Of a stretch of DNA of 64,000 nt, positions 3,234-61,832 are shown one piece after another; position 1 is the first letter of the stretch; each line of letters begins with the position of its first letter. The DNA is from Candidatus Moraniibacteriota bacterium (GTDB lineage: Bacteria > Patescibacteriota > Minisyncoccia > Moranbacterales > GCA-2747515), in the NCBI GenBank assembly GCA_942490825.1, contig CALNYG010000005.1, positions 262,240 through 326,239 of the forward strand, read 5' to 3'. The notes below the pieces were generated by a model. The model saw only the letters and a program-made list of their open reading frames with translations, was not told the DNA's origin and searched no databases. Position numbers and translations under genes: made by a program.

Positions 3234-3253
3234 GTGCTCGCCGCACGGGCTTT
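3234..3253 (-). repeat. Box-A repeat, empty form, inverted orientation
   Basis: GTGCTCGCCGCACGGGCTTT, directly after the clpP terminator hairpin. Confidence 0.9.
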
Positions 3254-3338: not shown

Positions 3339-3755
3339 ATGTTTGATTTTCTTAAAAAGAAAGTTTTGGCGAAGTGTTGTAATGTTCAAATTCCGATTAA
3401 AGATAAGATTTCTGCTTTTGGAAAAGAGATTACAACCGAGGTTCCCGTAAAAGACGGAAAAACATTGTATTGTCATAAATGCCTAGGAAAGATGGTGATA
3501 AAGTGTGCATGGTGTGGAGGAGTTATTTTTATTGGTGATCCGATAACTCTGTATTCGCCAGTCAAAAAGGATTTTGAAATTCCAGAACATGCCGTTATTT
3601 ATAAGGAAAAACCTTTGCAACTTATTGGTTGTTTGCGATGGGATTGTGCGGAAACTGGCGCTGATCGGATGGGGTTTTGGCTTCCGCCAGGTAAAGTGGA
3701 AAGAGTTAGGGACCCTTCAACAAAGTGTGTCCATCGCCCATTTAACCTTTCTTAA
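3339..3755 (+). CDS. Cys-rich hypothetical protein (putative zinc-ribbon)
   Basis: GGAGG 6 nt upstream of the ATG at 3339. CxxC-type pairs (CHKC...CAWCGG, CLRWDC). The last ~46 nt of the ORF lie inside the left inverted repeat of the IS256-family element. Confidence 0.55.
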   Translation: MFDFLKKKVLAKCCNVQIPIKDKISAFGKEITTEVPVKDGKTLYCHKCLGKMVIKCAWCGGVIFIGDPITLYSPVKKDFEIPEHAVIYKEKPLQLIGCLRWDCAETGADRMGFWLPPGKVERVRDPSTKCVHRPFNLS

Positions 3756-4996
3756 TTTTATTAAAATATTTAAAATTAGAAACAGGATATTTCATATAAT
3801 TTTTTTCTTCAAACTCCTTAATAACCATAAATACATAGTCCAATAATCTTTCGGGAGATTCAAATGATAATTTATTCTTTGTAGTTTTTCTAATTTGCCT
3901 ATTCAAATTTTCAATTGAATTAGTTGTATAAATCATTCTTCTTACTCGAGGATTGAATTTAATATATGTAAAATAATATTCAATTTCTGTAAAATGATTT
4001 TTAAAATTTGGATATTTTGTTTTCCATTTTTCTAAAAAATTATTTACTTTTTTCAAGGCTTTTTCAATTGTATCATTTTCTTCAAAATTATTAAATATTT
4101 CTTTTAAATCTTCTCCTATTTCTTTTTTATCTTTCGGTCTTGTTTTGTTTAAAATATTTCTTTGTTTATGAACTACGCACTTTTGAAATTCTCCTTGGGG
4201 ATATATTTCTAAAAATACATTTTCTAAATTTTTTAATCCATCAGCTACAAATAAATCTATTTGTTGAACACCTCTTTTTTCTTTTAATTCTTGCAATAAT
4301 TCTTTCCAAAATTCTGCTGATTCGGTTGGATTTTGACTTAAACAAAGCAATTCTCGTCTATTATCTTCTCTTACTCCAAAAGCAATAAATACACCTTCCT
4401 TAGCGTATTCATCACCTCTTCGCACAGTAATGAAAATTACATCTCCATAAACAACTTTGTAATGTTTTTCTAATTTGGAATTTTGCCAAGCTATTCTAAA
4501 TTTATTAAATACTTTTGCTAAATTAGATATCTTAGCAGGAGACATGTTTTCTTCAAAAATTTCATTTAAAAATTCATTAATGTCATTGGAAGTCATTCCT
4601 TTTTTATATAAAGATAAAGCTATTTCATCTACTTTTTCTCTGTTAATTTTAAAAGTTCTAGTGTTGCTGGAGAGAATAATCCTGTTCTAGTTCTTGGAAT
4701 ATGAACAAGTAATGAGTTTTTTGATAATGAATTCATAGCTCTTCCGTATGATCCATTTCCTTTATCTTTTTTAGTTTTATTAATATCTTCTAAATACTCA
4801 TCTCTTTCTATTAGCATTAAGGTTTCTATTGTTTTTCCTATGAATTTATCCATGGATAAATCATCTAGATTTTCTCTTAAGTTTTTTATGTTTTTTTCTA
4901 ATAATTCTTCGGTTCTATTTTTCTTGTCTGACATGATTTTATTATTAAATTTATTAATTTAATTTTACTATCAGACACAATTTTGTGAAGGGTCTC
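3709..4996 (-). mobile_element. IS256-family insertion sequence (~1.29 kb)
   Basis: Imperfect terminal inverted repeats: GGGACCCTTCAACAAAGTGTGTCC (3709..) versus the reverse complement of the right end, GAGACCCTTCACAAAATTGTGTCT (..4996), 18 of 23 matching. Encloses a Mutator/IS256-type transposase. No target duplication was recognised. Confidence 0.8.
3742..4934 (-). pseudogene. IS256-family (Mutator-type) transposase, split by one frameshift
   Basis: ORFs 4629..4934 (GNGSYGRAMNS...IPRTRTGLFSP) and 3742..4596 (YKKGMT upstream in frame, VVYGDVIFITVRR, LFVADGLKNL, QKCVVHKQRN) are collinear with IS256 transposases. They join if the A5 run (plus-strand T5, 4633-4637) were A6. Confidence 0.85.
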
Positions 4997-10514: not shown

Positions 10515-12563
10515 ATGTCAAATTTTTTAAATAAAAACAAATTTAAAAATAAATTTTTTAGGGTGGCTATAAAGGCGCTTGTGTTTTCTGTTTTCTGCTT
10601 TTTCTTTCTTTATAACGTTAATTTTGTAGAGGCTGAGAGTTGTGTAGTGCCTAAAGATTGTAAAAAATCTACGGATACATGTGTTCAAGGACAGTGTGTT
10701 GATGAAGATGGTACAGATTATAGCAAACAATCTCGTACTAAGCTTGATAAAGCGTGGGATCTTTTTACTAATCCAATAGATTCAACTCTTCTTGCTATTT
10801 TAGAGGGTATGAGCTGGCTAGTAAAAGCTGCAGTTTTTTTGTTTGAAATAGCAGTTAATCCAGAACTTTTTAATAAATTGTTTAGGGACAGTGGTACGAC
10901 TTTGTATGAAATGTGGGGCTTTATTAGAGATTTTCTTAATATTTTCTTTATTTTGATTTTGCTTTTTAGTGCTTTTGCGACTGTTTTTCAGGTTTCTAAA
11001 TATCATATTCAGAAGATTCTTTTGTCGGTAGTTTTGATGGCTCTTTTGGTTAATTTTAGTTGGACTATTACTAGGATTATTATTGATCTTAGTAATGTTA
11101 CGATGTATTTTTTTATTGATGAAATGTTGCTTGGCTCCGGTGAAACTACTGCAAAAATAGGTGCTTTATCAAATTTAAGTGACATAATGGTTCCAGGGGA
11201 TTTTTCAAAGGTGGCAGGTGCAAAGGATACTACATATCTTTTGTTGGCTATTACGGTTGTTTTTATTTTTGGAGTGACTTTATTGGCTTATGCTGGGGTT
11301 TTATTAATTAGGGTTATTGCATTGGTTTTATTATTGATTTTTTCTCCTGTTGGTTTTGTGGCAGCGGCTTTTCCGTCTACTAGTAAGTATGCGTCTCAAT
11401 GGTGGGATGCTTTGTTTAAATATGCTTTTAGTGGTCCGACTTTGATTTTTATGTTGGTGGTGGCGATTAAGATGCTAGAGGCAATTGGTGGGAGTGGAAT
11501 TGGTGAGAATGAATTGAGGAGTATAATAAGCAAAGAAGGACTTGAAAATAATCTTAATAATATGGCGGAAAGTATTGCTCTTTTTACGATTCCGATTATG
11601 ATTCTTTGGACGGCTTTGATTACGTCGGGGAAGGCGGGGGATGCTGGTTCTGCTTGGGTTTCTAATAAGATGCAGGGATGGAGCAAAAAAACTGGAAAGT
11701 TTGTTGGAAAATATGGAAAGAAAGGCGTTGTGGGAGGCGTTGTGGGAGGCGTTGTGGCAACTGGCAGGGGCGTAGATTTTGCTACGGCAAAAATTAGTAA
11801 GGATCCTACAAATAGACCATTTGCAAATTTATCAGGTACTTTTCAGGGAGTTAAGCAGAGAGGTAAAGATGTTTGGGCTGGCATGGAGAGAGAGCGACAG
11901 GCTCAAGTTGATACTATGAAAGCGGGGGCTATGGGGGCTTTAGGTGATAAGACAGCAATACAGAGGCTTGAGGATACAAAAATAGCTGAAGTGACGAAGA
12001 AGCATAAAGAGGAAGGCGTTAGTACTTCGATTTTAGCTGATAGATTGAAGGACGCTAAAGGTTCGGAATATAAAGCTATAGTTAAAACATTAGTGGATAG
12101 AAAAGACTTAAATAAAGAAGATAATGAAAAGTTATCTGAGGCGATTGGTAAAGTTAAAACAGTTGATGGTAAGGCGGATGAGAAAATGCAAGGAGCAATT
12201 ATTAAGAAGCTTTCTGATTCTAGAAATGGTCATCTTGCTATTAAGGAACTTGAGAAATTTTACAATGATCCAGATTCGAGAAGGGAGATTACTGATGCAA
12301 CAACAGGATTAAAAAGAAATGCTACCGCTGATGAAAATATGAAAGAGGCTACAAAAGTTATTATAAGTAGATTAGATAATGCAGGTATAGCAAAAAATAG
12401 TGAATTATTAAAGCAGGCTCTTCCAGGTTCTGGAGCCGCTAATCAATCGTATTTAAGAAATAGGATTAAAGATAGGATTGCATCTCCAAAAGTCTTAATT
12501 GATGTTCAAAGTAAAATGACTAGCAGAGAGGATTTTAGAAATTTAGGTGGAATTGTTACATAA
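10515..12563 (+). CDS. large polytopic membrane protein with Cys-rich N-terminal ectodomain and helical C-terminal tail (VirB6/TrbL-like topology, tentative)
   Basis: 682 aa. Signal/TM segment, CVVPKDCKKSTDTCVQGQC motif, about 6-7 TM helices, G/V repeat KKGVVGGVVGGVV (15-bp tandem at 11724-11757), then a ~250-aa charged tail. Confidence 0.6.
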   Translation: MSNFLNKNKFKNKFFRVAIKALVFSVFCFFFLYNVNFVEAESCVVPKDCKKSTDTCVQGQCVDEDGTDYSKQSRTKLDKAWDLFTNPIDSTLLAILEGMSWLVKAAVFLFEIAVNPELFNKLFRDSGTTLYEMWGFIRDFLNIFFILILLFSAFATVFQVSKYHIQKILLSVVLMALLVNFSWTITRIIIDLSNVTMYFFIDEMLLGSGETTAKIGALSNLSDIMVPGDFSKVAGAKDTTYLLLAITVVFIFGVTLLAYAGVLLIRVIALVLLLIFSPVGFVAAAFPSTSKYASQWWDALFKYAFSGPTLIFMLVVAIKMLEAIGGSGIGENELRSIISKEGLENNLNNMAESIALFTIPIMILWTALITSGKAGDAGSAWVSNKMQGWSKKTGKFVGKYGKKGVVGGVVGGVVATGRGVDFATAKISKDPTNRPFANLSGTFQGVKQRGKDVWAGMERERQAQVDTMKAGAMGALGDKTAIQRLEDTKIAEVTKKHKEEGVSTSILADRLKDAKGSEYKAIVKTLVDRKDLNKEDNEKLSEAIGKVKTVDGKADEKMQGAIIKKLSDSRNGHLAIKELEKFYNDPDSRREITDATTGLKRNATADENMKEATKVIISRLDNAGIAKNSELLKQALPGSGAANQSYLRNRIKDRIASPKVLIDVQSKMTSREDFRNLGGIVT

Positions 12564-12577
12564 AATAATTTATAAAA

Positions 12578-13825
12578 ATGGATAATAAAAATCAAAAAAA
12601 ATATTTTCCAATGTTGGCAGGAGGGAATAGTTTTGAAGATTATGAAAAATTACGTTCTCTGCCAAAAAAAATACAAGGAATTTTGCTTTCTGAAAAGATC
12701 ACCGATTTTATCTATGGTGCGTCACAACGCTATAATTTAGACGATACAAAAACAGAAGAATTTTCACGGACAGTGCGACAATATTTTTTCAATGAAATCC
12801 AAGACGGACAGTTTGCCAGAAAAATAGCAGAACTTTGCAATACATCAAATGAATCAGGATTAGAAATATTAAACTCCATAAAAAATATCCGACCAGAATC
12901 AGAAGTAAAACCAAAAAGAAATTTAGTAACTGGACAAGCATACACACCCACACAATCAATAAATTTCTCAAATAATTTTCCAACAAATAACAGAGGCGTT
13001 TCTTCCACACAATCACGAGCAAAACAATCAATAAAACCACAAAATAGATTGAGTAGCACAACACCACAAACATCAAATATAGTTCAAGTTCCAATCAGAA
13101 AAGCCCTAAAATTATATCCAAAATTAGAATCACAAACATTAACCAAAAGTCCAATCGTATCCAAACCATTTCTTAAACCAGTAAAACCAACAATAAAAAA
13201 CTGGTTGACAATTTATGAAGAATTGATGGGCGTTAGTAAAAAAGGAGCGATGGAAAGAGGAAATTTTCTTTTTCATTCAGAGGCAACAAAAAATTTACCA
13301 ACAGATGAGCGACAAAAGTTAGCACAGGTACTTAAGTCAGCTGATGATAGCTCAAATTTAAAAATTGATACGACTAATGGAGATATCATTTTTACAATTC
13401 TAGCTATTGAGAAAAAGTTGCCAGTTAACAAATCAGTTGAAAAAAGTTTTTCACAACAAACAAATCCTGTTAAAAATACAATTCCATCTCAACAATCAAG
13501 TTCTAATATTTTATCTCAAGATAAAAAAAATGATTCTATTGATCAAAATCAGAAACAATCAAGTGTGAGTCCGACTAGTGATTTTAAACAAAAAGAAAAT
13601 AAGGAAAATTTTCAGTTTCAAAAAAATGGTTTTGGTAGTTTGCAAAAGGGTGATGGTCTAAATAATTTTGCTAGTAAGTTAGTAAATGAAAATGCTGGAG
13701 ATATGGGAAGTGAAGACTTTAATATAGCACAACAAAAAAATAAATCTTTAAGTTCCTCAGATAATTCTGAAGAAAATATTAGCTTTACTTCCAGACATAT
13801 TTTGCCGAAAGAGAAGCAAGAATAA
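12578..13825 (+). CDS. hypothetical protein with Q/S/N/P/T-rich low-complexity regions
   Basis: 415 aa. Starts 14 nt after the preceding membrane protein gene, so probably co-transcribed. No family recognised. Confidence 0.55.
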   Translation: MDNKNQKKYFPMLAGGNSFEDYEKLRSLPKKIQGILLSEKITDFIYGASQRYNLDDTKTEEFSRTVRQYFFNEIQDGQFARKIAELCNTSNESGLEILNSIKNIRPESEVKPKRNLVTGQAYTPTQSINFSNNFPTNNRGVSSTQSRAKQSIKPQNRLSSTTPQTSNIVQVPIRKALKLYPKLESQTLTKSPIVSKPFLKPVKPTIKNWLTIYEELMGVSKKGAMERGNFLFHSEATKNLPTDERQKLAQVLKSADDSSNLKIDTTNGDIIFTILAIEKKLPVNKSVEKSFSQQTNPVKNTIPSQQSSSNILSQDKKNDSIDQNQKQSSVSPTSDFKQKENKENFQFQKNGFGSLQKGDGLNNFASKLVNENAGDMGSEDFNIAQQKNKSLSSSDNSEENISFTSRHILPKEKQE

Positions 13826-13980
13826 TTTTTTATTTTAGAGGGAACTTGAGAATGTTTTTTTGCACATGTGAGTAAATATATTTTCAAATAATATAGCTTG
13901 TTATTTTGAGTGGAATAAAATTTTTGTAAAAATTTTATGTAATGAAGAATCTTAATAAGTTTTTCTAATAATCCCAGATA

Positions 13981-14259
13981 TGTCATGCTGAAAGATATAA
14001 GTTGTTCAAGGGGGTAGTGATTGAATACAAACCTGCCTGTTCGGCAGACAGGTTAATCTATTCAGTATCTGCATCTTAAGTTTAAAGAAAATTGAAGGTA
14101 TATCTTTCTTCCGAGATTCTGAATAAATATTTTTTTAAATATTTTTCAGGATTACATGGGGAGAAGTTTGAATGTAATTTAGAATTTTTGTGATTCTCTG
14201 TAGGAGATTCTTCACTTCATAAATTTATCTGCGATAAATTTATTACGTTCAGAATGACA
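13981..14259 (+). repeat. nested-palindrome element (NPE), extended copy
   Basis: Left end TGTCATGCTGAA, right end GTTCAGAATGACA. Carries a GC mini-palindrome (14032-14052), a CTGAATAAAT...ATTTTTCAG hairpin, the inner arm GAGATTCTTCAC and hairpin B ATAAATTTATC-TGC-GATAAATTTAT. Confidence 0.8.
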
Positions 14260-15246: not shown

Positions 15247-15577
15247 TGTCATTGCGAGGAATGACCGTAGGGAATGACGTGGTAATCCCAGTAAGTTTTC
15301 CTGATATTTTAATTTTAAAGTTTTTAGTTTTGAAACGTTTCGGAATCAGTGGTCTTCGACACACTAATTCCGGCAGTAAAAAGCTTTTAGTTTAGAAACG
15401 TTTCGGAATCAGTGGTCTTTGACACACTAATTCCGGTAGTAAAATTAATCTATCTGGTATCCAGAAAATATTAGAAAATAACTAAGGTTAAAAGTTTGGC
15501 TATAGTCTTAAAATTTCCTAGATTCCGGATAAATTTTGTATTTTTTTACGAAAAACAAAAAATTTTCCGGAATGACA
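15247..15577 (+). repeat. composite NPE-type repeat block
   Basis: Starts with the mini-hairpin TGTCATTGCGAGGAATGAC, then the NPE spacer (AATCCCAGTAAGTTTTCCTGATATTTTAATTTTAAAG), two tandem Hp-C units, and ends TTCCGGAATGACA. Confidence 0.75.
15322..15444 (+). repeat. Hp-C hairpin module, 63-bp tandem duplication (2 units)
   Basis: Unit TTTTAGTTTNGAAACGTTT-CGGAATCAGTG-GTCTTYGACA-CACTAATTCCG. Hairpins at 15341-15372 and 15404-15435. Confidence 0.9.
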
Positions 15578-15648: not shown

Positions 15649-16247
15649 ATGGCAAAAAAGCGGGTGCGACATCATGTTAATCCTTTGAGCGATTTAACAG
15701 AATATTCTTTTTCTGGATTTGAAAATGATAATCCAGTTATTATTGACGTGGGGGCGGATCATGGTGAATTTACTGAGGGTTTGTTGGATAAATTTGGTGA
15801 GGAAAAAAACTTTATTGTTTTTGAAATTCGTAAACCTTTGGCGGAAAAGTTGAGGCAGATGTTTTCTGATCATAAAAATGTGGTTGTTTTTGATGGTGAT
15901 GCAAATCGTAATTTTGAAAATATTGTTCGACCTTACTTGAAAAAAAATAAAGTGGAAGAAATTTTTGTTAATTTTCCTGATCCTTGGTTTAAGTCTCGAC
16001 ATCATAAAAGGCGTTTTATAAATGAAAATTTTTGCAGTCAATTAAAGATTGGATGCCGAGTTCTACGACGTGGATTTTTCAAACTGATCAAAAAAAGCTT
16101 TTTGAGGATACTTTGGAGGTTTTAGAAAATGTTGGGATTGATGACATTGAGTTTTTTGATGAATCGCCGTATGACTTGCAAACTAAGTGGGAAAAGGCTA
16201 AGCTTAAGGAAGGTTTGGAGATTAATCGGATGAGGTTTAGGTTTTAG
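15649..16247 (+). pseudogene. trmB: tRNA (guanine-N7)-methyltransferase, frameshifted in a T5 run
   Basis: MAKKRVRHHVNPL, IIDVGADHGEF, VNFPDPWFKSRHHKRRF. After ENF the homologous sequence (LQSIKDWMPSSTTWIFQTDQKKLFEDTLEVL) continues in the -1 frame (track ORF 16032..16247). The frames join if T5 (16029-16033) were T6. Confidence 0.8.
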
Positions 16248-16301: not shown

Positions 16302-16616
16302 TGTCATTCCGGAAATTTTTTAAGTTTTTTGTAAAAAAAATTTAAAAAATTATCCGGAATCTAGGAATCTTTAAGATTAATGATAAACTTTAAATTTTAT
16401 GTTTGTCTGAGATCATCCAATCAAGTTGAGTGCAGGCTCTGAATAAATTATTTGATTTTTCTGCAAAAAACAAAATAATTTTTCAGGATGACATGACATG
16501 AAAAGAGGTTTGAATGTAATTTTAAAGTTTTGTGATTTTCTGTGGGGGATTTCTGTCTGCCCTGTCTGCCGACAGGCAGGCGACAGGCAGGCGACAAAGG
16601 CAGGTTCAGAATGACA
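16302..16616 (+). repeat. composite NPE-type repeat block
   Basis: Begins TGTCATTCCGGAA, an inverted copy of 15508-15577. Contains the CTGAATAAATTA...AAAATAATTTTTCAG hairpin, the NPE spacer, a duplicated GC mini-palindrome cluster (16553-16604), and ends GTTCAGAATGACA. Confidence 0.8.
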
Positions 16617-18666: not shown

Positions 18667-18829
18667 TGTCATTCTGAACGAAGTAATATTTTCGTTAGAA
18701 AATTTTACGTAGTGAAGAATCCCCTTAGACTTTTCTGATAATTCAATTTTTAAAGTTTTGTGACTTTCTGTGGGGGATTCTTCACTGCATAAATTTATCT
18801 GCGATAAATTTATTACGTTCAGAATGACA
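18667..18829 (+). repeat. nested-palindrome element (NPE), canonical copy
   Basis: TGTCATTCTGAAC; hairpin A GTAATATTTTC-GTTA-GAAAATTTTAC; GTAGTGAAGAATCCCC; ~50-nt spacer; GGGGGATTCTTCACT; hairpin B; CGTTCAGAATGACA. Sits between sufB and sufD. Confidence 0.9.
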
Positions 18830-23525: not shown

Positions 23526-23569
23526 GTGCCTGTCTGCCGAATAGGTAGGCTCGCCGCACGGGCTTTTTT
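23526..23569 (-). repeat. Box-A repeat, filled form, inverted orientation
   Basis: Reverse complement reads AAAAAAGCCCGTGCGGCGAGC-CTACCTATTCGGCAGACAGGC-AC. Confidence 0.9.
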
Positions 23570-23594: not shown

Positions 23595-23818
23595 TGTCAT
23601 TCTGAACCTGCCTTTGTCGCCTGCCTGTCGGCAGACAGGGCAGACAGGCGGATTTATTTTTTTGTTAAAAAAATAAAGAAGTGAAGCCTGCCTGTCGGCA
23701 GACAGGAATCCCTCACAAAGCATCACAAAACTTTAAAATTAAAATAGCAGAAAAATTTACAAGGATTCTTCACTACATAATTTTTCATTACATGAAAAAT
23801 TATTTCGTTCAGAATGAC
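23595..23818 (-). repeat. nested-palindrome element (NPE), inverted copy with three GC mini-palindrome insertions
   Basis: Ends TGTCATTCTGAAC / GTTCAGAATGAC. The spacer is the reverse complement of the canonical spacer. GC palindromes at ~23606-23650 (two, overlapping) and 23687-23706, the latter splitting the inner arm GTGAAG|AATCCC. Confidence 0.85.
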
Positions 23819-23838
23819 GGGTTGTTCTGCCTGTTTTT

Positions 23839-26156: not shown

Positions 26157-26233
26157 AGTTTTAAATTAATTTTTAATCCCCAATGAGGCTCGAGGACATG
26201 TTTACGAATTTTCAATTTTCAAATAGTGCAACC

Positions 26234-26395
26234 TGTCATTCTGAACGAAGTAGAATTTTCGTTAGAAAATTTTACGCAGTGAAGAATCCCAGTAAGTTTT
26301 TTTGATATTTTAATTTTAAAGTTTTGTGACTTTCTGTGGGGGATTCTTCACTTCATAAATTTATCTGCGATAAATTTATTACGTTCAGAATGACA
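26234..26395 (+). repeat. nested-palindrome element (NPE), canonical copy
   Basis: TGTCATTCTGAAC; GTAGAATTTTC-GTTA-GAAAATTTTAC; CAGTGAAGAATCCC; spacer; GGGGGATTCTTCACT; ATAAATTTATC-TGC-GATAAATTTAT; CGTTCAGAATGACA. Preceded by TTTTCAATTTTCAAATAGTGCAAC as in copies 2234 and 18667. Confidence 0.9.
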
Positions 26396-26439
26396 GGTTA
26401 AATAATGGTAAAATTGTAGAGGTTTAAAATTTTAAACCT

Positions 26440-26461
26440 AAAAAGCCCGTGCGGCGAGCAC
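26440..26461 (+). repeat. Box-A repeat, empty form
   Basis: AAAAAGCCCGTGCGGCGAGCAC, preceded by the 20-nt palindrome AGGTTTAAAATTTTAAACCT. About 60 nt upstream of xseA. Confidence 0.9.
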
Positions 26462-26482
26462 TTTTATTTTTTTAAATAATTA

Positions 26483-28210: not shown

Positions 28211-28256
28211 TTTAGAAACGTTTCGGAATGAGTGGTCTTCGACACACTCATTCCGG
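28211..28256 (+). repeat. Hp-C hairpin module, single copy
   Basis: TTTAGAAACGTTT-CGGAATGAGTG-GTCTTCGACA-CACTCATTCCG. A G/C pair replaces the C.A mismatch of the 15341 copy. Confidence 0.9.
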
Positions 28257-28295
28257 TTAGTTGATAATTATAATTAAAAAGTTAAATTTAAAAAT

Positions 28296-28569: not shown

Positions 28570-28627
28570 AGTGTGGATTAAATTAAAAGTTTTGTGTACC
28601 TAGTTTCCCGCCTACGCGGGAATGACA
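28570..28627 (+). repeat. right-half NPE variant (CCCGCCTACGCGGG type)
   Basis: AAAAGTTTTGTGTACCTAGTTTCCCGC-CTAC-GCGGGAATGACAT, matching 215-266 of this window (ATCCCCGC-CTAC-GCGGGGATGACAT) with a compensatory C-G to T-A change in the stem. Confidence 0.75.
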
Positions 28628-28825: not shown

Positions 28826-28868
28826 AAAAAGCTCGTGCGGCGAGCCTGCCTGTTCGGCAGACAGGCAC
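28826..28868 (+). repeat. Box-A repeat, filled form
   Basis: AAAAAGCTCGTGCGGCGAGC-CTGCCTGTTCGGCAGACAGGC-AC, 75 nt upstream of the oxidoreductase alpha gene. Confidence 0.9.
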
Positions 28869-39878: not shown

Positions 39879-40039
39879 TATCATTCTGAACGAAATAATT
39901 TTTATGAAATAAAAATTATGTAGTGAAGAATCTTAATGAGTTTTTCTGATATTATAACTTGAAAGCTTTGATATTTTTTTAGGAGATTCTTCACTTCTTT
40001 ATTTTTTTTAACAAAAAAATAAATCCGTTCAGAATGACA
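39879..40039 (+). repeat. nested-palindrome element (NPE), canonical architecture with alternative hairpins
   Basis: TATCATTCTGAAC; ATAATTTTTAT-GAA-ATAAAAATTAT; GTAGTGAAGAATCT; spacer; GAGATTCTTCACT; TTTATTTTTTTT-AAC-AAAAAAATAAA; CGTTCAGAATGACA. Confidence 0.9.
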
Positions 40040-47198: not shown

Positions 47199-47945
47199 AT
47201 GAGTAAGACTATTTATATTGCAATTTTTTTGATGGTGGCAATTCTTGGGGGGTTGTTAACTCTAGCGATTTTAGACGGTGATATTGTTGAAGATGTTGAA
47301 GTTGTAGAAGAAATAATAAAAAAAGAGGACAGTGGTTTAATTGAAAATAATTTTGAGAATGATTTAAAAAATAAAACTTGTAGCATTGATGCTCTAGGAA
47401 ATATTTCAAGTGAGTGCTCTGTTGATGTAAATAATTTGGAAGATGACGTTGTTAGAAAGGATGATAAAAAGAAAGAAATAAAGGAAATTTTTGGAACGAA
47501 AAAAGGAGATTTGGCTTATAATTTTGAGTTGGTTAATTTATCCGGTGAGAAAGTTAAGCTGTCAGATTATCGTGGTAAAAAGCCAGTTATTGTGGAGTTT
47601 TGGAATGCGTGGTGTCATAATTGCCAGAGGGAAATGCCGAAGTTGCAAAAGACTTATGAAAAATATGATGGTAAATTTGAAATCATTGGGGTTAACTTAT
47701 TGCCAAATAAAGATTTTTCAGGCAGTGAAGATTCTAAAGAAGAGATAATTTCTTTTGTTAAAAAATATAAAATAACTTTTCCGATAATTCTTGACGATAA
47801 ACTTTTAGCTGCTAGAAAGTATGAAGTTAAAGCGACTAATCATCATTTTTTGATTAATACGGATGGAACGATTTATGATAGTTTTTTTATTGATTTGGAA
47901 GAAAAAATATTGGAAGATTTTTTGGAGTTTAATGAAATAAAATAA
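47199..47945 (+). CDS. membrane-anchored TlpA/ResA-like thiol:disulfide oxidoreductase
   Basis: N-terminal TM helix. Thioredoxin fold with WNAWCHNCQREMP (CxxC). Confidence 0.8.
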   Translation: MSKTIYIAIFLMVAILGGLLTLAILDGDIVEDVEVVEEIIKKEDSGLIENNFENDLKNKTCSIDALGNISSECSVDVNNLEDDVVRKDDKKKEIKEIFGTKKGDLAYNFELVNLSGEKVKLSDYRGKKPVIVEFWNAWCHNCQREMPKLQKTYEKYDGKFEIIGVNLLPNKDFSGSEDSKEEIISFVKKYKITFPIILDDKLLAARKYEVKATNHHFLINTDGTIYDSFFIDLEEKILEDFLEFNEIK

Positions 47946-47954
47946 GCGGTTAGA

Positions 47955-48058
47955 TTTTAAGACTTTTGTGATTTTCTGTGGGGGACTCCTGTCTGCCGAC
48001 AGGCAGGCTTCACTGCGTAATTTTGTCTGACGACAAAATTACTTCGTTCAGAATGACA
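47955..48058 (+). repeat. right-half NPE with GC mini-palindrome inserted in the inner arm
   Basis: Spacer tail TTTTGTGATTTTCTGTGGGGGA | CTCCTGTCTGCCGACAGGCAGG | CTTCACT; hairpin B variant GTAATTTTGTC-TGAC-GACAAAATTAC; CGTTCAGAATGACA. Confidence 0.85.
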
Positions 48059-48159: not shown

Positions 48160-48201
48160 AAAAAGCCCGTGCGGCGAGCCTGCCTATCGGCAGACAGGCA
48201 C
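48160..48201 (+). repeat. Box-A repeat, filled form
   Basis: AAAAAGCCCGTGCGGCGAGC-CTGCCTATCGGCAGACAGGC-AC then TTTTTATTTTTT, 45 nt upstream of rpiB. Near-identical to the copy at 781..822. Confidence 0.9.
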
Positions 48202-51425: not shown

Positions 51426-51464
51426 AGCCCGTGCGGCGAGCCTGCCTGTTCGGCAGACAGGCAC
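51426..51464 (+). repeat. Box-A repeat, filled form
   Basis: TATGTATCATAGCCCGTGCGGCGAGC-CTGCCTGTTCGGCAGACAGGC-AC, 87 nt upstream of gdhA. Confidence 0.9.
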
Positions 51465-52815: not shown

Positions 52816-52846
52816 TAAAAATCACCGCGGAGCGGTGATTTTTTTG
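52816..52846. terminator. bidirectional terminator-like hairpin; left copy of a 33/34-nt direct repeat
   Basis: TTTTAAAAATCACCGCGG-AGCGGTGATTTTTTT. It recurs at 61611..61641 with one extra G in the loop. Confidence 0.7.
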
Positions 52847-52902
52847 TTTTGGATAATTTCGAGAACGCTGGTATACTAATTAATATACAATTAATTTTTT
52901 TT

Positions 52903-54054
52903 ATGGCTAATTTGAAAGAAAATTTGAAAGAAAGTAGAGCTCAAGGAATTTTATTTGATTTTTTAGAAGACAAAAATGAAATTTGTGATTTAAAAATAAA
53001 AAAAATTAATAAGCCTAATTTTAAATTTAAAAAGGAAAAAGATAATTATTTTCAATTACAAAATCGTAGGTATTTAGGTAATAAATATAAATTACTTGAA
53101 TTTATTGAAGCTATAGTTTCTAAAAAATGTGAGAATGTTAATTCTTTTTGTGATATTTTTTCTGGAACAGGTGTTGTGGGAGAAAGATTTAATAAAAATG
53201 GCACAAAGGTGATTTTGAATGATATTTTGAATGCAAATTATATTTGTTTAAAAACTTTTTTAGAAACAAAAAAAGATATTGAAAAAAAAGTCATTGAGAA
53301 AATAAACTATTTAAATGAATTGAAAATTAATAATGAAAATTATTTCTCCAAAAATTTTGGAGGAAGTTATTTTTCGGTGGAAAATGCAAAAAAAATTGGT
53401 ACAATCCGTGAAAAAATAGAAAAGATTTCAGAAAATGAAAATGAAAAAAGAATTTTACTTTGCTCTTTACTTTATGCAACTGATAAAGTTGCAAACACCG
53501 TTGGTCATTATGATGCTTTTAGAAAAAAACTTGATTCTATTGAGCCTTTAAAATTGTTGGTGCCTAAGATTAATTATTCTAGTAACTTAAATAATAGAGT
53601 ATATAAAGAGGACGCAAATTATTTGATTCGTAAAATATCTTGTGATGTTTTATATATAGATCCTCCTTATAATTCAAGACAATATTCAGATGCTTATCAT
53701 TTACTTGAAAATTTATCAGAATGGAAAAAGCCTAGTGTTGAAGGCGTTGCAAAAAAGATGAATCGTTCACATATAAAAAGTGACTATTGTTTAAAAACAG
53801 CTACTCAAGCATTTGAAGATTTAATTAAGAATGCAAATTGTAAACATATATTATTTTCTTATAATAATACTGGAGATTCTAAACATGGTCGCTCTAATGC
53901 TAGAATAAAAGATGATGATATTATTAGAATTCTTAAGAAGAAAGGAAAAATTGAAATTTTTGAACAAAAATACAGAGCATTTACAACTGGGAAAAGTGCT
54001 AAAGATGGAAATTCTGAAAGAATATTTTATTGTAAAGTAACTAAAAAATCATGA
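52903..54054 (+). CDS. type II DNA adenine methyltransferase (D12-class / COG3392-like), M1 of an M-R-M locus
   Basis: NRRYLGNKYKLL N-terminal motif, FCDIFSGTGVVG (SAM binding), catalytic DPPYNSRQY. ATG at 52903. The stop overlaps the R gene start (ATGA). Confidence 0.85.
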   Translation: MANLKENLKESRAQGILFDFLEDKNEICDLKIKKINKPNFKFKKEKDNYFQLQNRRYLGNKYKLLEFIEAIVSKKCENVNSFCDIFSGTGVVGERFNKNGTKVILNDILNANYICLKTFLETKKDIEKKVIEKINYLNELKINNENYFSKNFGGSYFSVENAKKIGTIREKIEKISENENEKRILLCSLLYATDKVANTVGHYDAFRKKLDSIEPLKLLVPKINYSSNLNNRVYKEDANYLIRKISCDVLYIDPPYNSRQYSDAYHLLENLSEWKKPSVEGVAKKMNRSHIKSDYCLKTATQAFEDLIKNANCKHILFSYNNTGDSKHGRSNARIKDDDIIRILKKKGKIEIFEQKYRAFTTGKSAKDGNSERIFYCKVTKKS

Positions 54055-55880
54055 AAAAACCTTGGTCAATAACAACAACTCTAAGAAATCCTGAAAGATT
54101 GAGAGATTTTTTGGTTGTTTTACAACAATTAGAAGGTCAAGAATGGAATTTGGAGAATCAAAGAAAATATCAAATTCTTCTTATTAAAGAAAGGATTTAT
54201 GGATATGGAAGTGCACAATTTTATAGTGGATTAAGTCAACAACAAATATCTTTAATTGATAATCAGGCAAGAGAAATTTCTTTTGAAAAAGCAGAAGAAA
54301 TTTTTAATGCTAAAAATTATGAAGATCCTGCAATGAGAGGGAGACAATCAATGAATCCTCTTAAAAAGATTGGACTTGCTATTATAAAAAGGGAAAAAAT
54401 ATTAATCACTAGCTTGGGAAAATTATTCTTGCAGGAACATTTTGATTTAGGAGAGATGTTTTTTAGGAGTTTTATAAAATGGCAATTACCAAATCTAGAT
54501 TCAACTGATTATAAATTAGAGAATGGATATAATATAAAACCATTTGTTGGAGTTTTACATTTGATAAACCAAGTAAATAAAAAATCTTTGAAGATTGGAG
54601 AAAAAGCAAAAGGAATTAGCAAACAAGAATTTTCTTTATTTTGTCCAAGTCTTATAAATTTTGGAGATATAGAAAATTATGCTGATAAAATTTTAAAATT
54701 AAGAGAAAAGCAAAAGGGTAAAAATAAACAAGAGCAGAAAAAAGTTTTTGATGATTATAAAAATAGATTTGTTCAAGAATTTTTAGAAACTAGCGATAAA
54801 GAAGAAATTGATAAATTTTTAAAGAATCTTAAAGATTATGGGGATAATGCAATAAGATACTTTCGTTTAACTCGGTTTTTATATATTCGAGGTAATGGAT
54901 TTTATGTTGATTTAGAGCCAAGAAGACAAATTGAAATTAAAAATTTATTAAATTTTGATAATGCAAGTTCCAGAGGCTTTGAAAACAAAGAACAATATTT
55001 AGACTATATAGCAGATATTTCAGAGCCAAGACTTCCATGGGAGTCAAAAGAAGAGTATAAAAAGATTCTTTCAAAACTTATTGAAGATATTAAAACATAC
55101 GAAGAAAAATTAAGTATTAAAACAAAAGAAATTGTAGATTATCAAAGTTTTAGTGAAGAAGAATTGAGAAAATATATTTCGGACTTAAGACAATACAGAA
55201 GAGAATTACAAAATGAAGAAAATCATCAAAAATCACAAGAAATAGAACAAATACGTGATTATATAGAAAATCTAAATAGATTATCTCGTGTTGATAGAAC
55301 TTTAGAAAATAGACCTATTCTTTTAGAAAAATTTTCATCACTAGGATTAAATGCTTTAAATGATGCTTTAAAAATAAAACCAAATTATCCTGTTGGTGAT
55401 GATAATGAGCCTACATTTACAGCTCCTGCAAATACTCCTGACATTGAATGTTATTATGAAAATTTCAATACTGTATGTGAGGTAACAATGCTTAACGGAA
55501 GAGATCAATGGTATAATGAGGGGCAACCAGTAATGAGACATTTAAGAGATTTTGAAAATAAAAACGATGATAAAAAATCATATTGTTTATTTATTGCTCC
55601 AAAAATTCATAGAGATACTCTAAATACTTTTTGGACATCAGTAAAATATGAATATGAGGGAGCAAGACAATGTATAATTCCTTTTACAATCAATGATTTT
55701 GTAAGTCTTTTAAAAATTCTTGTTGAAATTAAAAAAGAAGGAAAATTTTTAACACATGGGGAAATTGCTCGCTTGTATGATGAAATTATCAATACATCAA
55801 ATGATTTTTCTGATTCAAGTGAATGGTTAAATGAAATTCCAAATACAATTAATTCTTGGCAAAAAAGTATCAATTTTTAA
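54051..55880 (+). CDS. AlwI-family type IIS restriction (or nicking) endonuclease
   Basis: 609 aa. Recalled Nt.BspD6I/N.BstNBI/MlyI/PleI sequences are collinear: WSITTTLRNPER start, NAIRYFRLTRFLYIRGNGFYVDLEP, and catalytic region PDIECYYENFNTVCEVT...QPVMRHL...YCLFIAPKI. Comparison is from memory, not a search. Confidence 0.75.
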   Translation: MKKPWSITTTLRNPERLRDFLVVLQQLEGQEWNLENQRKYQILLIKERIYGYGSAQFYSGLSQQQISLIDNQAREISFEKAEEIFNAKNYEDPAMRGRQSMNPLKKIGLAIIKREKILITSLGKLFLQEHFDLGEMFFRSFIKWQLPNLDSTDYKLENGYNIKPFVGVLHLINQVNKKSLKIGEKAKGISKQEFSLFCPSLINFGDIENYADKILKLREKQKGKNKQEQKKVFDDYKNRFVQEFLETSDKEEIDKFLKNLKDYGDNAIRYFRLTRFLYIRGNGFYVDLEPRRQIEIKNLLNFDNASSRGFENKEQYLDYIADISEPRLPWESKEEYKKILSKLIEDIKTYEEKLSIKTKEIVDYQSFSEEELRKYISDLRQYRRELQNEENHQKSQEIEQIRDYIENLNRLSRVDRTLENRPILLEKFSSLGLNALNDALKIKPNYPVGDDNEPTFTAPANTPDIECYYENFNTVCEVTMLNGRDQWYNEGQPVMRHLRDFENKNDDKKSYCLFIAPKIHRDTLNTFWTSVKYEYEGARQCIIPFTINDFVSLLKILVEIKKEGKFLTHGEIARLYDEIINTSNDFSDSSEWLNEIPNTINSWQKSINF

Positions 55881-55895
55881 TTCCTATAAAAAATT

Positions 55896-56663
55896 ATGAA
55901 AAAAAATATTATCTACAACGGAGATTGTACAGAAGTACTAGCCAAGAAAATTCAAGAAAATTCAATTGATCTCATTTTTGCTGATCCTCCTTATAATCTT
56001 TCTGGAAATGGCTTGCATTGGAAAGGAAGCAAAACAGGTGGAGACTGGTTTATGGTAAATGAAGAATGGGACAAAATGACAGCTCCTGAATATATGCAAT
56101 TTACAAGAAAATGGATTGCAGGTTGTCATAAAGCACTAAAAGATAACGGATCAATCTATATCGCTTGTAGTTATCACAATATTGGAGAAGTGATGATTGT
56201 TTTAAAACAACTCGATTATAAAATTAACAATATCATTACTTGGTACAAAACAAATGCAATGCCAAATATGACAAGAAGAGTTTTTACTCATGCAACTGAA
56301 TTTGTAATTTGGGCAGTTAAAGGGAAAGGCTGGACTTTTAATTATGAAAAAATCAAAGAAATTAACCCAGAAAAGCAAAAAGACGGAAGTTTAAAACAAA
56401 TGAGAGATTTTTGGGAAATGCCTTTAGTTCAAGGAAAAGAAAGATTAAGAAGAAAGGATGGAAAGGCTTTACATCCGACACAAAAACCAGAAGAAATGTT
56501 AAAAAGAATTATTTTAGCAAGTTCAAATGAGAAAGATGTTGTTTTAGATCCTTTTATGGGAAGTGGGACAACTGCTTTTATTGCTAAAAAATATAAACGT
56601 AATTTTATAGGAATCGAAAGTGATAAAAAATACGTAGAAGCTGCAAGAAAAAGATTGAAATAG
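55896..56663 (+). CDS. beta-class N6A/N4C DNA methyltransferase (CcrM/M.HinfI-like), M2
   Basis: IFADPPYNL near the N-terminus, IITWYKTNAMPN, HPTQKPEEMLKRII, DPFMGSGTTA. Confidence 0.9.
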   Translation: MKKNIIYNGDCTEVLAKKIQENSIDLIFADPPYNLSGNGLHWKGSKTGGDWFMVNEEWDKMTAPEYMQFTRKWIAGCHKALKDNGSIYIACSYHNIGEVMIVLKQLDYKINNIITWYKTNAMPNMTRRVFTHATEFVIWAVKGKGWTFNYEKIKEINPEKQKDGSLKQMRDFWEMPLVQGKERLRRKDGKALHPTQKPEEMLKRIILASSNEKDVVLDPFMGSGTTAFIAKKYKRNFIGIESDKKYVEAARKRLK

Positions 56664-56724: not shown

Positions 56725-56778
56725 AAAAATAAAAAAGCGAGAATATAACATTCTCGCTTTTAAATAGTTAAATAATTC
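56725..56778. repeat. 54-bp perfect direct repeat (copy 1) containing a bidirectional terminator hairpin
   Basis: AAAAATAAAAAAGCGAGAATATAACATTCTCGCTTTTAAATAGTTAAATAATTC, identical to 61779..61832. Stem GCGAGAAT/ATTCTCGC. Sits just 3' of the MacB-type permease gene. Confidence 0.95.
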
Positions 56779-58108: not shown

Positions 58109-58240
58109 TGTCATCTTGAATATAGTGATAGGAAATTGATACTTGTCCGTTAAAGTACAGTGGGGAATGATTTAGAAGATTTTTTATTTTATATAAACTT
58201 TGAGATTTCTTTGCTCTGCTATTCTCCAGTCGAAATGACA
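58109..58240 (+). repeat. degenerate NPE-like element inside the ABC operon
   Basis: TGTCATCTTGAA ... CGAAATGACA ends with diverged interior. Occupies the 299-bp gap between the ATPase and permease genes. Confidence 0.55.
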
Positions 58241-60700: not shown

Positions 60701-60754
60701 GGTTTGTAATTTTAAACGTTTCTAAATTGGTTATAAAACCAGTTCCTGTGAGAT

Positions 60755-60909
60755 GTTATTCTGAACGAAGTATTTTTATTGTTAAATAAAAATATGCAGT
60801 GAAGAATCTTAGTAAGTTTTTTTTGAACTTAAATTATTGAGATGTACTGCTTGAGATTCTTCGTTTCATAAAATTTTCTAACGAAAATTTTATTACACTC
60901 AGAATGACA
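60755..60909 (+). repeat. nested-palindrome element (NPE), canonical architecture, diverged ends
   Basis: TGTTATTCTGAAC; TATTTTTATT-GTTA-AATAAAAATA; CAGTGAAGAATCT; spacer; GAGATTCTTCGT; ATAAAATTTTC-TAAC-GAAAATTTTAT; ACTCAGAATGACA. Confidence 0.85.
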
Positions 60910-61610: not shown

Positions 61611-61641
61611 TAAAAATCACCGCGGGAGCGGTGATTTTTTT
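61611..61641. terminator. bidirectional terminator-like hairpin; right copy of the 33/34-nt direct repeat
   Basis: TTTTAAAAATCACCGCGGGAGCGGTGATTTTTTT. Confidence 0.7.
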
Positions 61642-61778: not shown

Positions 61779-61832
61779 AAAAATAAAAAAGCGAGAATAT
61801 AACATTCTCGCTTTTAAATAGTTAAATAATTC
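61779..61832. repeat. 54-bp perfect direct repeat (copy 2) containing a bidirectional terminator hairpin
   Basis: Identical to 56725..56778. Sits just 3' of the MsbA-type exporter gene. Confidence 0.95.

Follow-up and report, generated by a model that had tools for sequence, protein, structure and literature searches.

The DNA analyzed here is a stretch of 64,000 nucleotides (hereafter, the window) from Candidatus Moranbacteria (Patescibacteria). Between its genes lies a family of ~160-bp elements, each of which is an inverted doublet of hairpin units around a conserved asymmetric spacer and in this resembles the REPINs, doublets of repetitive extragenic palindromes (REPs). In our preferred reading, which we consider probable, the units are REPs of the type tagged by CGTC or TGTC, and the doublets are non-autonomous DNA spread by an enzyme acting in trans. 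The window, in which the XseA and XthA proteins have Candidatus Moranbacteria/Moraniibacteriota as their best named relatives, is the part of the source genome that we examined. It was compared with three syntenic relatives: L180 (XseA 90% identical), L181 (metagenome-assembled genome [MAG] GCA_023133275.1, a member of the Moraniibacteriota, XthA 82% identical), and L183 (XthA 78% identical). The samples behind L180 and L183 are ERZ25073479 and SRR31654895.

Six full and about five partial or composite copies of the element are present in the window, together with three copies of sister subfamilies. All lie outside open reading frames (ORFs); their 2,475 bp account for 3.9% of the window and for 22.6% of what is non-coding in it, and of the 29 intergenic gaps that reach 100 bp, 13 contain them. 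The outer motif of the family, TGTCATTCTGAAC, matches the window 17 times with up to two mismatches (1.8 matches expected), and the inner motif, GTGAAGAATCC, 12 times with up to one mismatch (0.95 expected). A covariance model built on an alignment of 11 full copies, with a match limit of E ≤ 1, recovered full copies on the plus strand at 2234–2398, 18667–18829, 26234–26395, 39879–40039, and 60754–60909, one on the minus strand at 23595–23819, and partial pieces at 13899–14073, 14112–14259, 15285–15346, 16450–16584, and 47888–48058. The excess of motifs and the recovery of copies by the model show that the family of nested-palindrome intergenic elements proposed in an initial annotation of this DNA is real. 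Ten of the element ends in the window are exact copies of TGTCATTCTGAAC, and one is a CGTC end (23807–23819).

Each element runs from an outer inverted repeat through an AT-rich hairpin (A), an inner repeat, an asymmetric spacer of about 50–55 nt, the inner repeat again, and a second hairpin (B) to the outer repeat, which is exactly the layout that had been claimed. In the copy under study (26234–26395), the left unit (26234–26291, plus strand) consists of a TGTC tag, a basal stem ATTCTGAAC/GTGAAGAAT with a tandem G·A mismatch, the linkers GAA and GCA, a distal hairpin, and a CCC tail; the distal stem is hairpin A, GTAGAATTTTC GTTA GAAAATTTTAC (26250–26275, plus strand). The core of the AT-rich spacer (26290–26340, plus strand) sets the orientation of the element and is conserved between the window and the MAG GCA_023133275.1. 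The right unit (26339–26395) lies on the minus strand, where it reads TGTC-ATTCTGAAC-GTA-ATAAATTTATC-GCA-GATAAATTTAT-GAA-GTGAAGAAT-CCC, and its distal stem is hairpin B, ATAAATTTATC TGC GATAAATTTAT on the plus strand (26355–26379). The whole copy adopts a four-way fold, at -36.6 kcal/mol as DNA (z = -9.8) and -61.4 kcal/mol as RNA (z = -10.2), and the opposite strand folds equally well (z = -10.1). Under the covariance model the strand defined by the spacer outscores the other by about 60 bits.

Read in the orientation of its tag, a unit follows the plan TGTC, ATTCTGAAC, GNA, distal stem, a loop that is mostly G..A, distal stem, GNA, GTGAAGAAT, and CYC; as an oligonucleotide the tag strand is TGTCATTCTGAACGAAGTGAAGAATCTC. 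The basal stem has nine positions, begins AT...AT, and contains a conserved tandem G·A/A·G mismatch; it is followed by a 3 × 3 GNA/GNA internal loop and then by an AT-rich stem of 10–12 bp. The simplest ends are the 25-mer GTCATTCTGAAC-GNA-GTGAAGAATC, which folds on itself as ATTCTGAAC pairs with GTGAAGAAT, so that the general form of an element is GTCATTCTGAAC-[optional hairpin]-GTGAAGAATC-[variable core]-GATTCTTCAC-[optional hairpin]-GTTCAGAATGAC. Among 231 minimal units in all the DNA that we fetched, 223 have G·A/A·G at the two middle stem positions and 203 have a loop of 3 nt, which is GCA, GAA, GTA, or GGA in 188 of the 203.

The pairing within a unit is supported by covariation. To avoid circular selection we took every 25-mer of the form GTCAT-N17-ATC, a set of 96 distinct sequences that includes chance matches. 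The five free Watson-Crick pairs covary in this set, with none of 500 shuffles reaching the observed score; pair 6–22, for instance, occurs as U-A, C-G, and G-C, and pair 11–17 as A-U (35 sequences) or G-C (22). Paired cells make up 69% of the set, compared with 24–40% in slid controls. Elements with two different ends, found in a metagenome scan, show which halves belong together: the different left end is still self-complementary in 16 of 24 and no longer matches the right end, with left-end stems such as ATCCT/AGGAT, ATTCC/GGAAT, ATGCT/AGCAT, and ATTGC/GCAAT beside a right end of ATTCT/AGAAT. Because each end pairs with itself and the ends mismatch each other, it makes better sense to treat the outer and inner inverted repeats, initially taken as separate pairs, as two halves of a single REP stem, with one such stem per end. 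Within every unit it is the tag strand that bears the G·A mismatches and GNA loops, so the two units of a doublet carry them on opposite strands; this arrangement would be easier to reconcile with units recognized individually as DNA than with one transcript that functions as a whole.

The distal hairpins likewise keep their structure while their sequence changes. In the alignment of 11 full copies, 99.1% of the cells of hairpin A are paired and both sides have changed at 7 of its 10 pairs; for hairpin B the figures are 99.2% and 6 of 11 pairs. For the structure as a whole, none of 500 shuffles reaches the observed pairing, and slid controls are 42–56% paired. The covariation that was to be expected if structure is what persists is thus present both in these hairpins and in the 25-mers. 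The stems do measure 10–12 bp, as had been noted, but calling them unrelated between copies was an overstatement, for they fall into about four related AT-rich types, each with its own 3-nt linkers. Given as linker, distal stem, and 3′ linker, these are X, GTA-ATAAATTTATC...GAA; Y, GGA-TTTATTTTTTC...GRR; Z, GAA-GTAGAATTTTC...GCA; and W, GAA-ATAATTTTTAT...GTA. Wherever both units of a copy could be parsed, they are of different types. Type X forms the right unit in the copies at 26234, 18667, and 14259 and the left unit in locus L109; since the same type can stand on either side, the apparent swapping of hairpins is the formation of heterodimers from a small pool of units. Heterodimers are already described for the CGTC-tagged REP superfamily (PMC3733652).

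That superfamily (Di Nocera, De Gregorio & Rocco, 2013, BMC Genomics 14:522; PMC3733652) is made up of REPs with a CGTC tag, often TGTC, with CCTC allowed; stems of 8–9 bp with complementary A and T at the first and second positions; loops of 4–5 nt, with exceptions; and a 3-nt tail that is mostly CCA. They occur mostly as dimers, frequently heterodimers, with conserved spacers of 20–100 bp, in five phyla; members include the Neisseria dRS3 and the Rickettsia RPE-4/6 repeats, and no transposase is associated with them. The units in the window share the unpaired tag, a nine-position AT...AT stem, inverted dimers with outward tags and a conserved spacer, an intergenic location, and occurrence in phyla far apart, and neither in the window nor beside units at the fetched loci is there an associated transposase gene. 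Their tail is similar only in being C-rich: it is CCC, CTC, or CTT, often followed by A, rather than CCA. We assign the units to the superfamily because of this combination of tag, AT...AT stem, C-rich tail, inverted dimers with conserved spacers, and lack of a transposase; their ends fit the superfamily as described there, and the initial view that the element is not a REP does not hold. They differ in the tandem G·A of the basal stem and in their host, since Patescibacteria are outside the five phyla named there (PMC3733652).

Two better-known systems help to place the doublets. Neisseria intergenic mosaic elements (NIMEs) consist of 50–150-bp segments flanked by the 20-bp dRS3 repeat, ATTCCC-N8-GGGAAT, and have been stated to be unseen outside Neisseria (PMC1797815). 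Their dRS3 unit is CGTC-1, and they form mosaics with other repeats, as the elements in the window do. However, dRS3-like units occur in the window only at 131–263 and 28604–28627; NIMEs form long GC-rich arrays by genes for surface proteins, whereas the window has mostly single doublets by housekeeping genes; and the main family, with its ATTCT...AGAAT stem and long insert or distal hairpin, is unlike dRS3 and lies outside the definition of NIME/dRS3. REPINs (Bertels & Rainey, 2011; PMC3116915) consist of REPs with a GTAG tag and are associated with a RAYT gene that is present in a single copy and has the same REPs on either side. The likeness is in the replicating unit, two inverted REPs with a spacer, which can fold into one long hairpin or let each unit form its own hairpin, giving a 'clover'; in new copies that land in or next to old ones; and in singlets that are decayed doublets. 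The differences are the tag, GTAG as against TGTC or CGTC, and that no RAYT was found in the window.

Other small repeats resemble the elements only in outline. Like Correia/NEMIS, ERIC, RUP, and BOX, the elements are 100–200 bp long, intergenic, and present in many copies, and have terminal inverted repeats. Correia elements, which are of one fixed sequence, cause duplication of a TA target, whereas the elements in the window have modular, covarying hairpin ends, show no duplication, and have no sequence similarity to these families of miniature inverted-repeat transposable elements (MITEs). Integron attC sites carry RYYYAAC...GTTRRRY boxes at the ends of cassettes arrayed by an integrase; TCTGAAC and GTTCAGA are each two positions off that consensus, and the copies are scattered among housekeeping genes with no cassette array or integrase. 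Sequence and context thus rule out attC, and likewise Correia, BOX, RUP, and ERIC, the four of these families from which the initial annotation had already set the element apart. A search of the literature for the exact end motifs matched only unrelated primers, and the literature that we searched held no report of REP-type repeats in Patescibacteria.

The unit spans many phyla. Scanning 185,579 species genomes for GTCATTCTGAAC-N(120–150)-GTTCAGAATGAC gave 114 loci, in Bacteroidota, Chloroflexota, Patescibacteria, Ignavibacteria, Calditrichota, Acidobacteriota, Hyphomicrobiales, and more; in these, nearly all left and right ends are 50–300 bp apart. The metagenome scan, in which only the right end was fixed, yielded mostly GC-rich relatives and no added Moranbacteria copies; the unit is present at 65 metagenome loci and in 11 viral contigs. 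The full element had no match in plasmid and phage collections, and the minimal unit matches unannotated spots on cyanobacterial and Phocaeicola plasmids. We considered and rejected an autonomous form of the element: the few ORFs between units are ordinary genes, and there was no protein-coding version among the fetched loci.

Comparison of orthologous intergenic regions shows that copies have been gained and lost between close relatives. The window and L180 share a copy in the ddl-DUF2103 spacer that is absent from L181. The xseA-xseB spacer has a copy in L180 and another repeat in the window, and the spacer from a HAD-family hydrolase gene to xseA contains the copy at 26234–26395 in the window and none in L180. 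Between sufD and sufB the window carries the ~160-bp family, and L181 and L183 a different TGTC-ended element of ~180–190 bp (family 2). No direct target duplications were seen at the flanks of the copies. Oriented by the spacer, 14 of 21 copies run in the same sense as the gene upstream, and 6 run antisense within operons. About 17 of the 21 are on the G-rich strand; the window, with ~31% G+C, has a strongly positive GC skew along its whole length. In the few cases that separate the two effects, four copies follow the skew and one follows the gene, which is no more than suggestive.

These patterns bear on the alternative that survives best, although we regard it as unlikely: that the element works as a structured RNA, whether as a small RNA gene or as a cis-acting element of the 3′ untranslated region, with a cloverleaf kept by selection at the RNA level. 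In its favor are the fold z-score of about -10, the compensated changes in both hairpins, the conservation of the asymmetric spacer between two genomes, the 14 sense copies just downstream of a gene, and an excess of G·T over A·C pairs on the strand defined by the core (16 versus 7, counts that are not independent). But the minus strand folds equally well, six copies are antisense inside operons, and the two units bear their G·A and GNA features on opposite strands. Copies come and go at housekeeping loci among close relatives, and insertions of 20–180 bp are tolerated in the spacer and stems. There is no promoter-like site upstream and no T-run directly after the element, and 9 of the 16 G·T pairs fall at two columns, where shared ancestry may account for them. 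Nor does the element match a known RNA family: in a search of Rfam 15 only tRNAs in the window reach the gathering threshold, permissive E-values give nothing relevant, and among matches below threshold the best, to hairpin models of plant miRNAs, score 36 bits where 94–211 would be required.

The initial annotation had also suggested that the element could be a scaffold into which small palindromes insert. This holds for a GC-rich palindrome of 20–21 bp but not for hairpins A and B. The copy at 23595–23819 is the ortholog of L180 656–819 with exact insertions of CCTGCCTGT(T)CGGCAGACAGG at 23608–23649 (itself nested) and 23687–23706; another insertion lies just outside the element at ~23528–23548, and none has a target duplication. 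The palindrome, as the same 21-mer, is also inserted exactly at 14032–14052 relative to L181, and at L180 2434–2454 relative to the window. Further occurrences in the window are at 800–819, 16541–16603, 28845–28865, 47988–48007, 48179–48198, and 51441–51461. The preferred sites are directly after the GGCGAG(C) of a 15-mer, GCCCGTGCGGCGAGC, described below, and at the GAAC/GTTC corner of REP units. Judged from these ortholog comparisons, the palindrome behaves as a very small mobile insertion. Small dispersed repeats of Nostoc reportedly insert precisely, without target duplication, into repeats and hairpins; they resemble this palindrome (and not the larger element) in their tiny size and precise insertion, and differ from it in sequence and host.

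Such insertions, within elements and elsewhere, several of them adjoining the GAAC/GTTC at which hairpins A and B sit, are what would favor an account in which the scaffold is fixed, hairpins A and B are independent mobile palindromes, and their variation reflects separate insertions. We think this very unlikely. In the window the AT-rich hairpin types occur solely inside elements, always at a fixed site flanked by 3-nt GNA linkers, each hairpin type having its own. In other phyla, too, hairpins are found at this position: of 116 elements from other taxa, 22 carry one in each unit and 32 in a single unit, their base composition matches that of the host, and the two within an element always differ (identity 0.14–0.62). 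Finally, the tip of one hairpin differs between 23595–23819 and its L180 ortholog by a compensated C-G to T-A change, made in place. From their restriction to elements, their equivalent position in other taxa, and the compensated change between orthologs, it follows that hairpins A and B extend the REP stems distally and are not inserted palindromes.

There is as little probability, in our estimation, that the units are sites kept by host or phage for attachment or recombination, or for nucleoid or replication proteins, and do not transpose. This would suit the near-identity of the 25-nt unit across phyla and its presence in phage contigs, two of which have head-to-tail arrays of the minimal unit, with a 30-bp period, at contig ends (L188 9663–9747 and L190 6763–6847; L190 encodes phage capsid and portal proteins). 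There is also a precedent in Neisseria, where filamentous prophages integrate into dRS3 and a role as recombinase target has been proposed (PMC1797815). However, the covariation seen in the unit indicates a folded single strand rather than a duplex binding site, relatives can do without copies, the copies in the window have no integrase or prophage next to them, and no recombinase was present among the ORFs scanned on the phage contigs with tandem units. Least probable of all is a MITE, that is, a shortened insertion sequence, derived by deletion, that has 25-nt terminal inverted repeats (TGT...ACA) and relies on a DDE transposase from elsewhere in the genome, for although the TG...CA ends, the long terminal inverted repeats, the 50–300 bp between nearly all left and right ends, and the multiple intergenic copies would agree with it, no copy has a target-site duplication, none of the 114 loci holds a longer protein-coding version, the ends covary as hairpins and may differ in type, and single units form head-to-tail arrays.

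To our knowledge, no dedicated transposase has been linked to the CGTC/TGTC superfamily since its description in 2013. If the doublets are indeed members of this superfamily mobilized in trans, the units would be non-autonomous selfish DNA. The trans-acting enzyme would recognize them as single-stranded DNA in its folded form, probably at the replication fork, and they would be copied without target duplication. That recognition, intrastrand template-switch correction of palindromes, or both would maintain the perfect stems, and a role in the host, for example as RNA structure at 3′ ends, would be secondary.

Several observations weigh against this reading. No mobilizing enzyme was found in the window: its sole transposase gene, of IS256 type (Mutator family; 3742–4934, minus strand), is split into two ORFs of 284 and 101 aa and is therefore probably inactive, in agreement with the initial statement that no transposase with matching ends is present. 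A tblastn search for a Y1/RAYT/IS200 partner gave no significant match beside units in 1.3 Mb of loci, a weak test that used two approximate queries; a Y1-like fragment detected with them (L041 1–393) is 4.8 kb from the nearest units. We obtained no clean pair of filled and empty sites for the 160-bp element, the element-free regions being too diverged. Loops in the superfamily are 4–5 nt long, whereas the minimal relatives have 3-nt GNA loops and the units in the window a 25–31-nt insert of linker, hairpin, and linker; our assignment is to the superfamily as a whole, which has four families. Room for a role at the RNA level is left by the conservation of the spacer and of a motif at the left flank between genomes, and by the surplus of G·T pairs on the core-defined strand. 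The orientation bias is confounded with gene orientation.

The left-flank motif, TTTACGAATTTTCAATTTTCAAATAGTGCAACC, is at 26201–26233 (plus strand) and recurs to the left of the copies at 2234 and 15247, of the copy at 18667, and of L180 4739; it also occurs without a doublet in L180 2410–2460, and no sigma-70-like promoter was scored in it.

The remaining copies illustrate how the elements decay and are interrupted. Among the full copies on the plus strand, 2234–2398 has a GC-rich palindrome nested at ~2247–2269 and a right unit without a distal hairpin; 18667–18829, between sufB and sufD, and 39879–40039, between tatD and ksgA, are each antisense to both neighboring genes; and 60754–60909 has diverged, its spacer and outer repeats decayed and both distal hairpins still perfect. 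A right half-copy at 47954–48058 (plus strand) holds the GC palindrome at 47988–48007. Most of the copies initially listed were recovered, some with other limits. The copy given as 13981–14259 starts at 13899 (13899–14259, plus strand), and its spacer is interrupted by a different, ~180-bp element of family 2 (13980–14157), within which lies the GC palindrome at 14032–14052. Those given as 15247–15577 and 16302–16616 are mosaics. The first is the left part of a copy (15247 to ~15327, plus strand) with a variant left unit, TGTCATTGCGAGG...GTAATCC, also found at L180 4739–4895, and is followed by other repeats to 15577. The second is the right part of a copy (16495–16616, plus strand) in which GC palindromes (~16541–16603) replace the distal hairpin; upstream of it are the right end of a family 2 element (to 16494) and a TGTCATTCCGGA unit (16302–16370).

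Three listed copies have no match to the covariance model at E ≤ 1 and are classed here as sister subfamilies, with no strand assigned. Two of them keep the family tag and have other unit types: the doublet at 131–263, with units ATTCCC...GGGAAT and ATCCCCGC-GTAG-GCGGGGAT, and a fragment at 28570–28627 that ends in the dRS3-like unit (28604–28627), which reads TGTC-ATTCCCGC-GTAG-GCGGGAAA on the minus strand. The third, at 58109–58240, is a degenerate copy with ends of the TGTCAT...ATGACA type.

Other repeats share the intergenic space. Family 2, of ~180–190 bp, has the form ATGTCATGCTGAAAGATATAA...TTTTTCAGGATGACAT and is nested in the spacer of two copies of the ~160-bp family; it occurs in the window at 13980–14157 and ~16371–16494, in L181 at ~10850–10975 and ~13785–13960, and in L183 at 11233–11256. 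The L183 contig ends inside this last TGTC-ended repeat, which suggests that the elements break short-read assemblies of genomes of the candidate phyla radiation (CPR). The repeat TTTAGAAACGTTTCGGAATSAGTGGTCTTCGACACACTMATTCCGG, an imperfect palindrome around GGAAT...ATTCC, is found at 15325–15440 (two tandem copies) and 28215–28265.

The 15-mer GCCCGTGCGGCGAGC is a separate intergenic motif, often 40–110 bp downstream of elements; near the copy under study it lies at 26445–26459 (plus strand) and is followed by a T-run. The window has 14 copies (0 expected), 12 of them on the plus strand, always intergenic and usually with a T-run after them: at 786, 9084, 14336, 16684, 18874, 26445, 28831, 31155, 40975, 43598, 48165, and 51427, and on the minus strand at 3236 and 23549. 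It is conserved in L180, L181, L183, and the Moraniibacteriota MAG. As a terminator it is unconvincing, with a stem of only 4–5 bp and unremarkable z-scores; its weak fold has a C·A mismatch on the plus strand and G·U on the minus strand. The motif might serve in termination or uptake or as a binding site.

The housekeeping genes of the window include tig, clpP, xthA, trmB, engB, sufBD, ddl, xseA, ksgA, and tatD, genes for a 2-oxoacid:ferredoxin oxidoreductase, and others. The trmB gene (tRNA m7G methyltransferase, 15649–16247) has an apparent frameshift near 16100–16125, beyond which the C-terminal part runs on in another frame to 16247; it is either a pseudogene or the product of a sequencing error. 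A restriction-modification cluster at 52849–56663 encodes a D12-class adenine methylase, an AlwI-family endonuclease, and an N6/N4 methylase. The hairpin AAAAATCACCGCGG(G)AGCGGTGATTTTT recurs at 52817, just upstream of this cluster, and at 61612, and the hairpin AAAAGCGAGAATATAACATTCTCGCTTTT at 56733, just downstream of it, and at 61787.

As a class of repeats, CGTC/TGTC-tagged REP doublets are already known, and the elements in the window are a variant of it. What is new is the host lineage, the extension of the units by distal hairpins with modular heterodimers (found also in several other phyla), the tandem G·A/GNA signature, and the nested 20–21-bp palindrome. The unit is far more widespread than in the 2013 description, reaching Patescibacteria, Chloroflexota, Acidobacteriota, Calditrichota, and phage contigs, and what is conserved in it is a hairpin with a precise purine mismatch, carried on one strand. 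A variable distal hairpin has grown out of the REP loop in several lineages, and heterodimers combine units that differ in their hairpins. It is conceivable, though doubtful, that the unit is the substrate of a phylum-spanning enzyme that copies folded single-stranded DNA without target duplication, with the distal hairpins as modules of specificity or immunity; were this so, streamlined CPR genomes of ~1 Mb, with 23% of non-coding DNA given over to units, would be the simplest place to find the enzyme by co-occurrence. The repeats are likely break points of MAG contigs. That a reduced CPR genome spends about a fifth of its scarce non-coding DNA on repeats is at odds with strict streamlining, and the small gene set of these bacteria makes them a tractable place to seek the partner enzyme.

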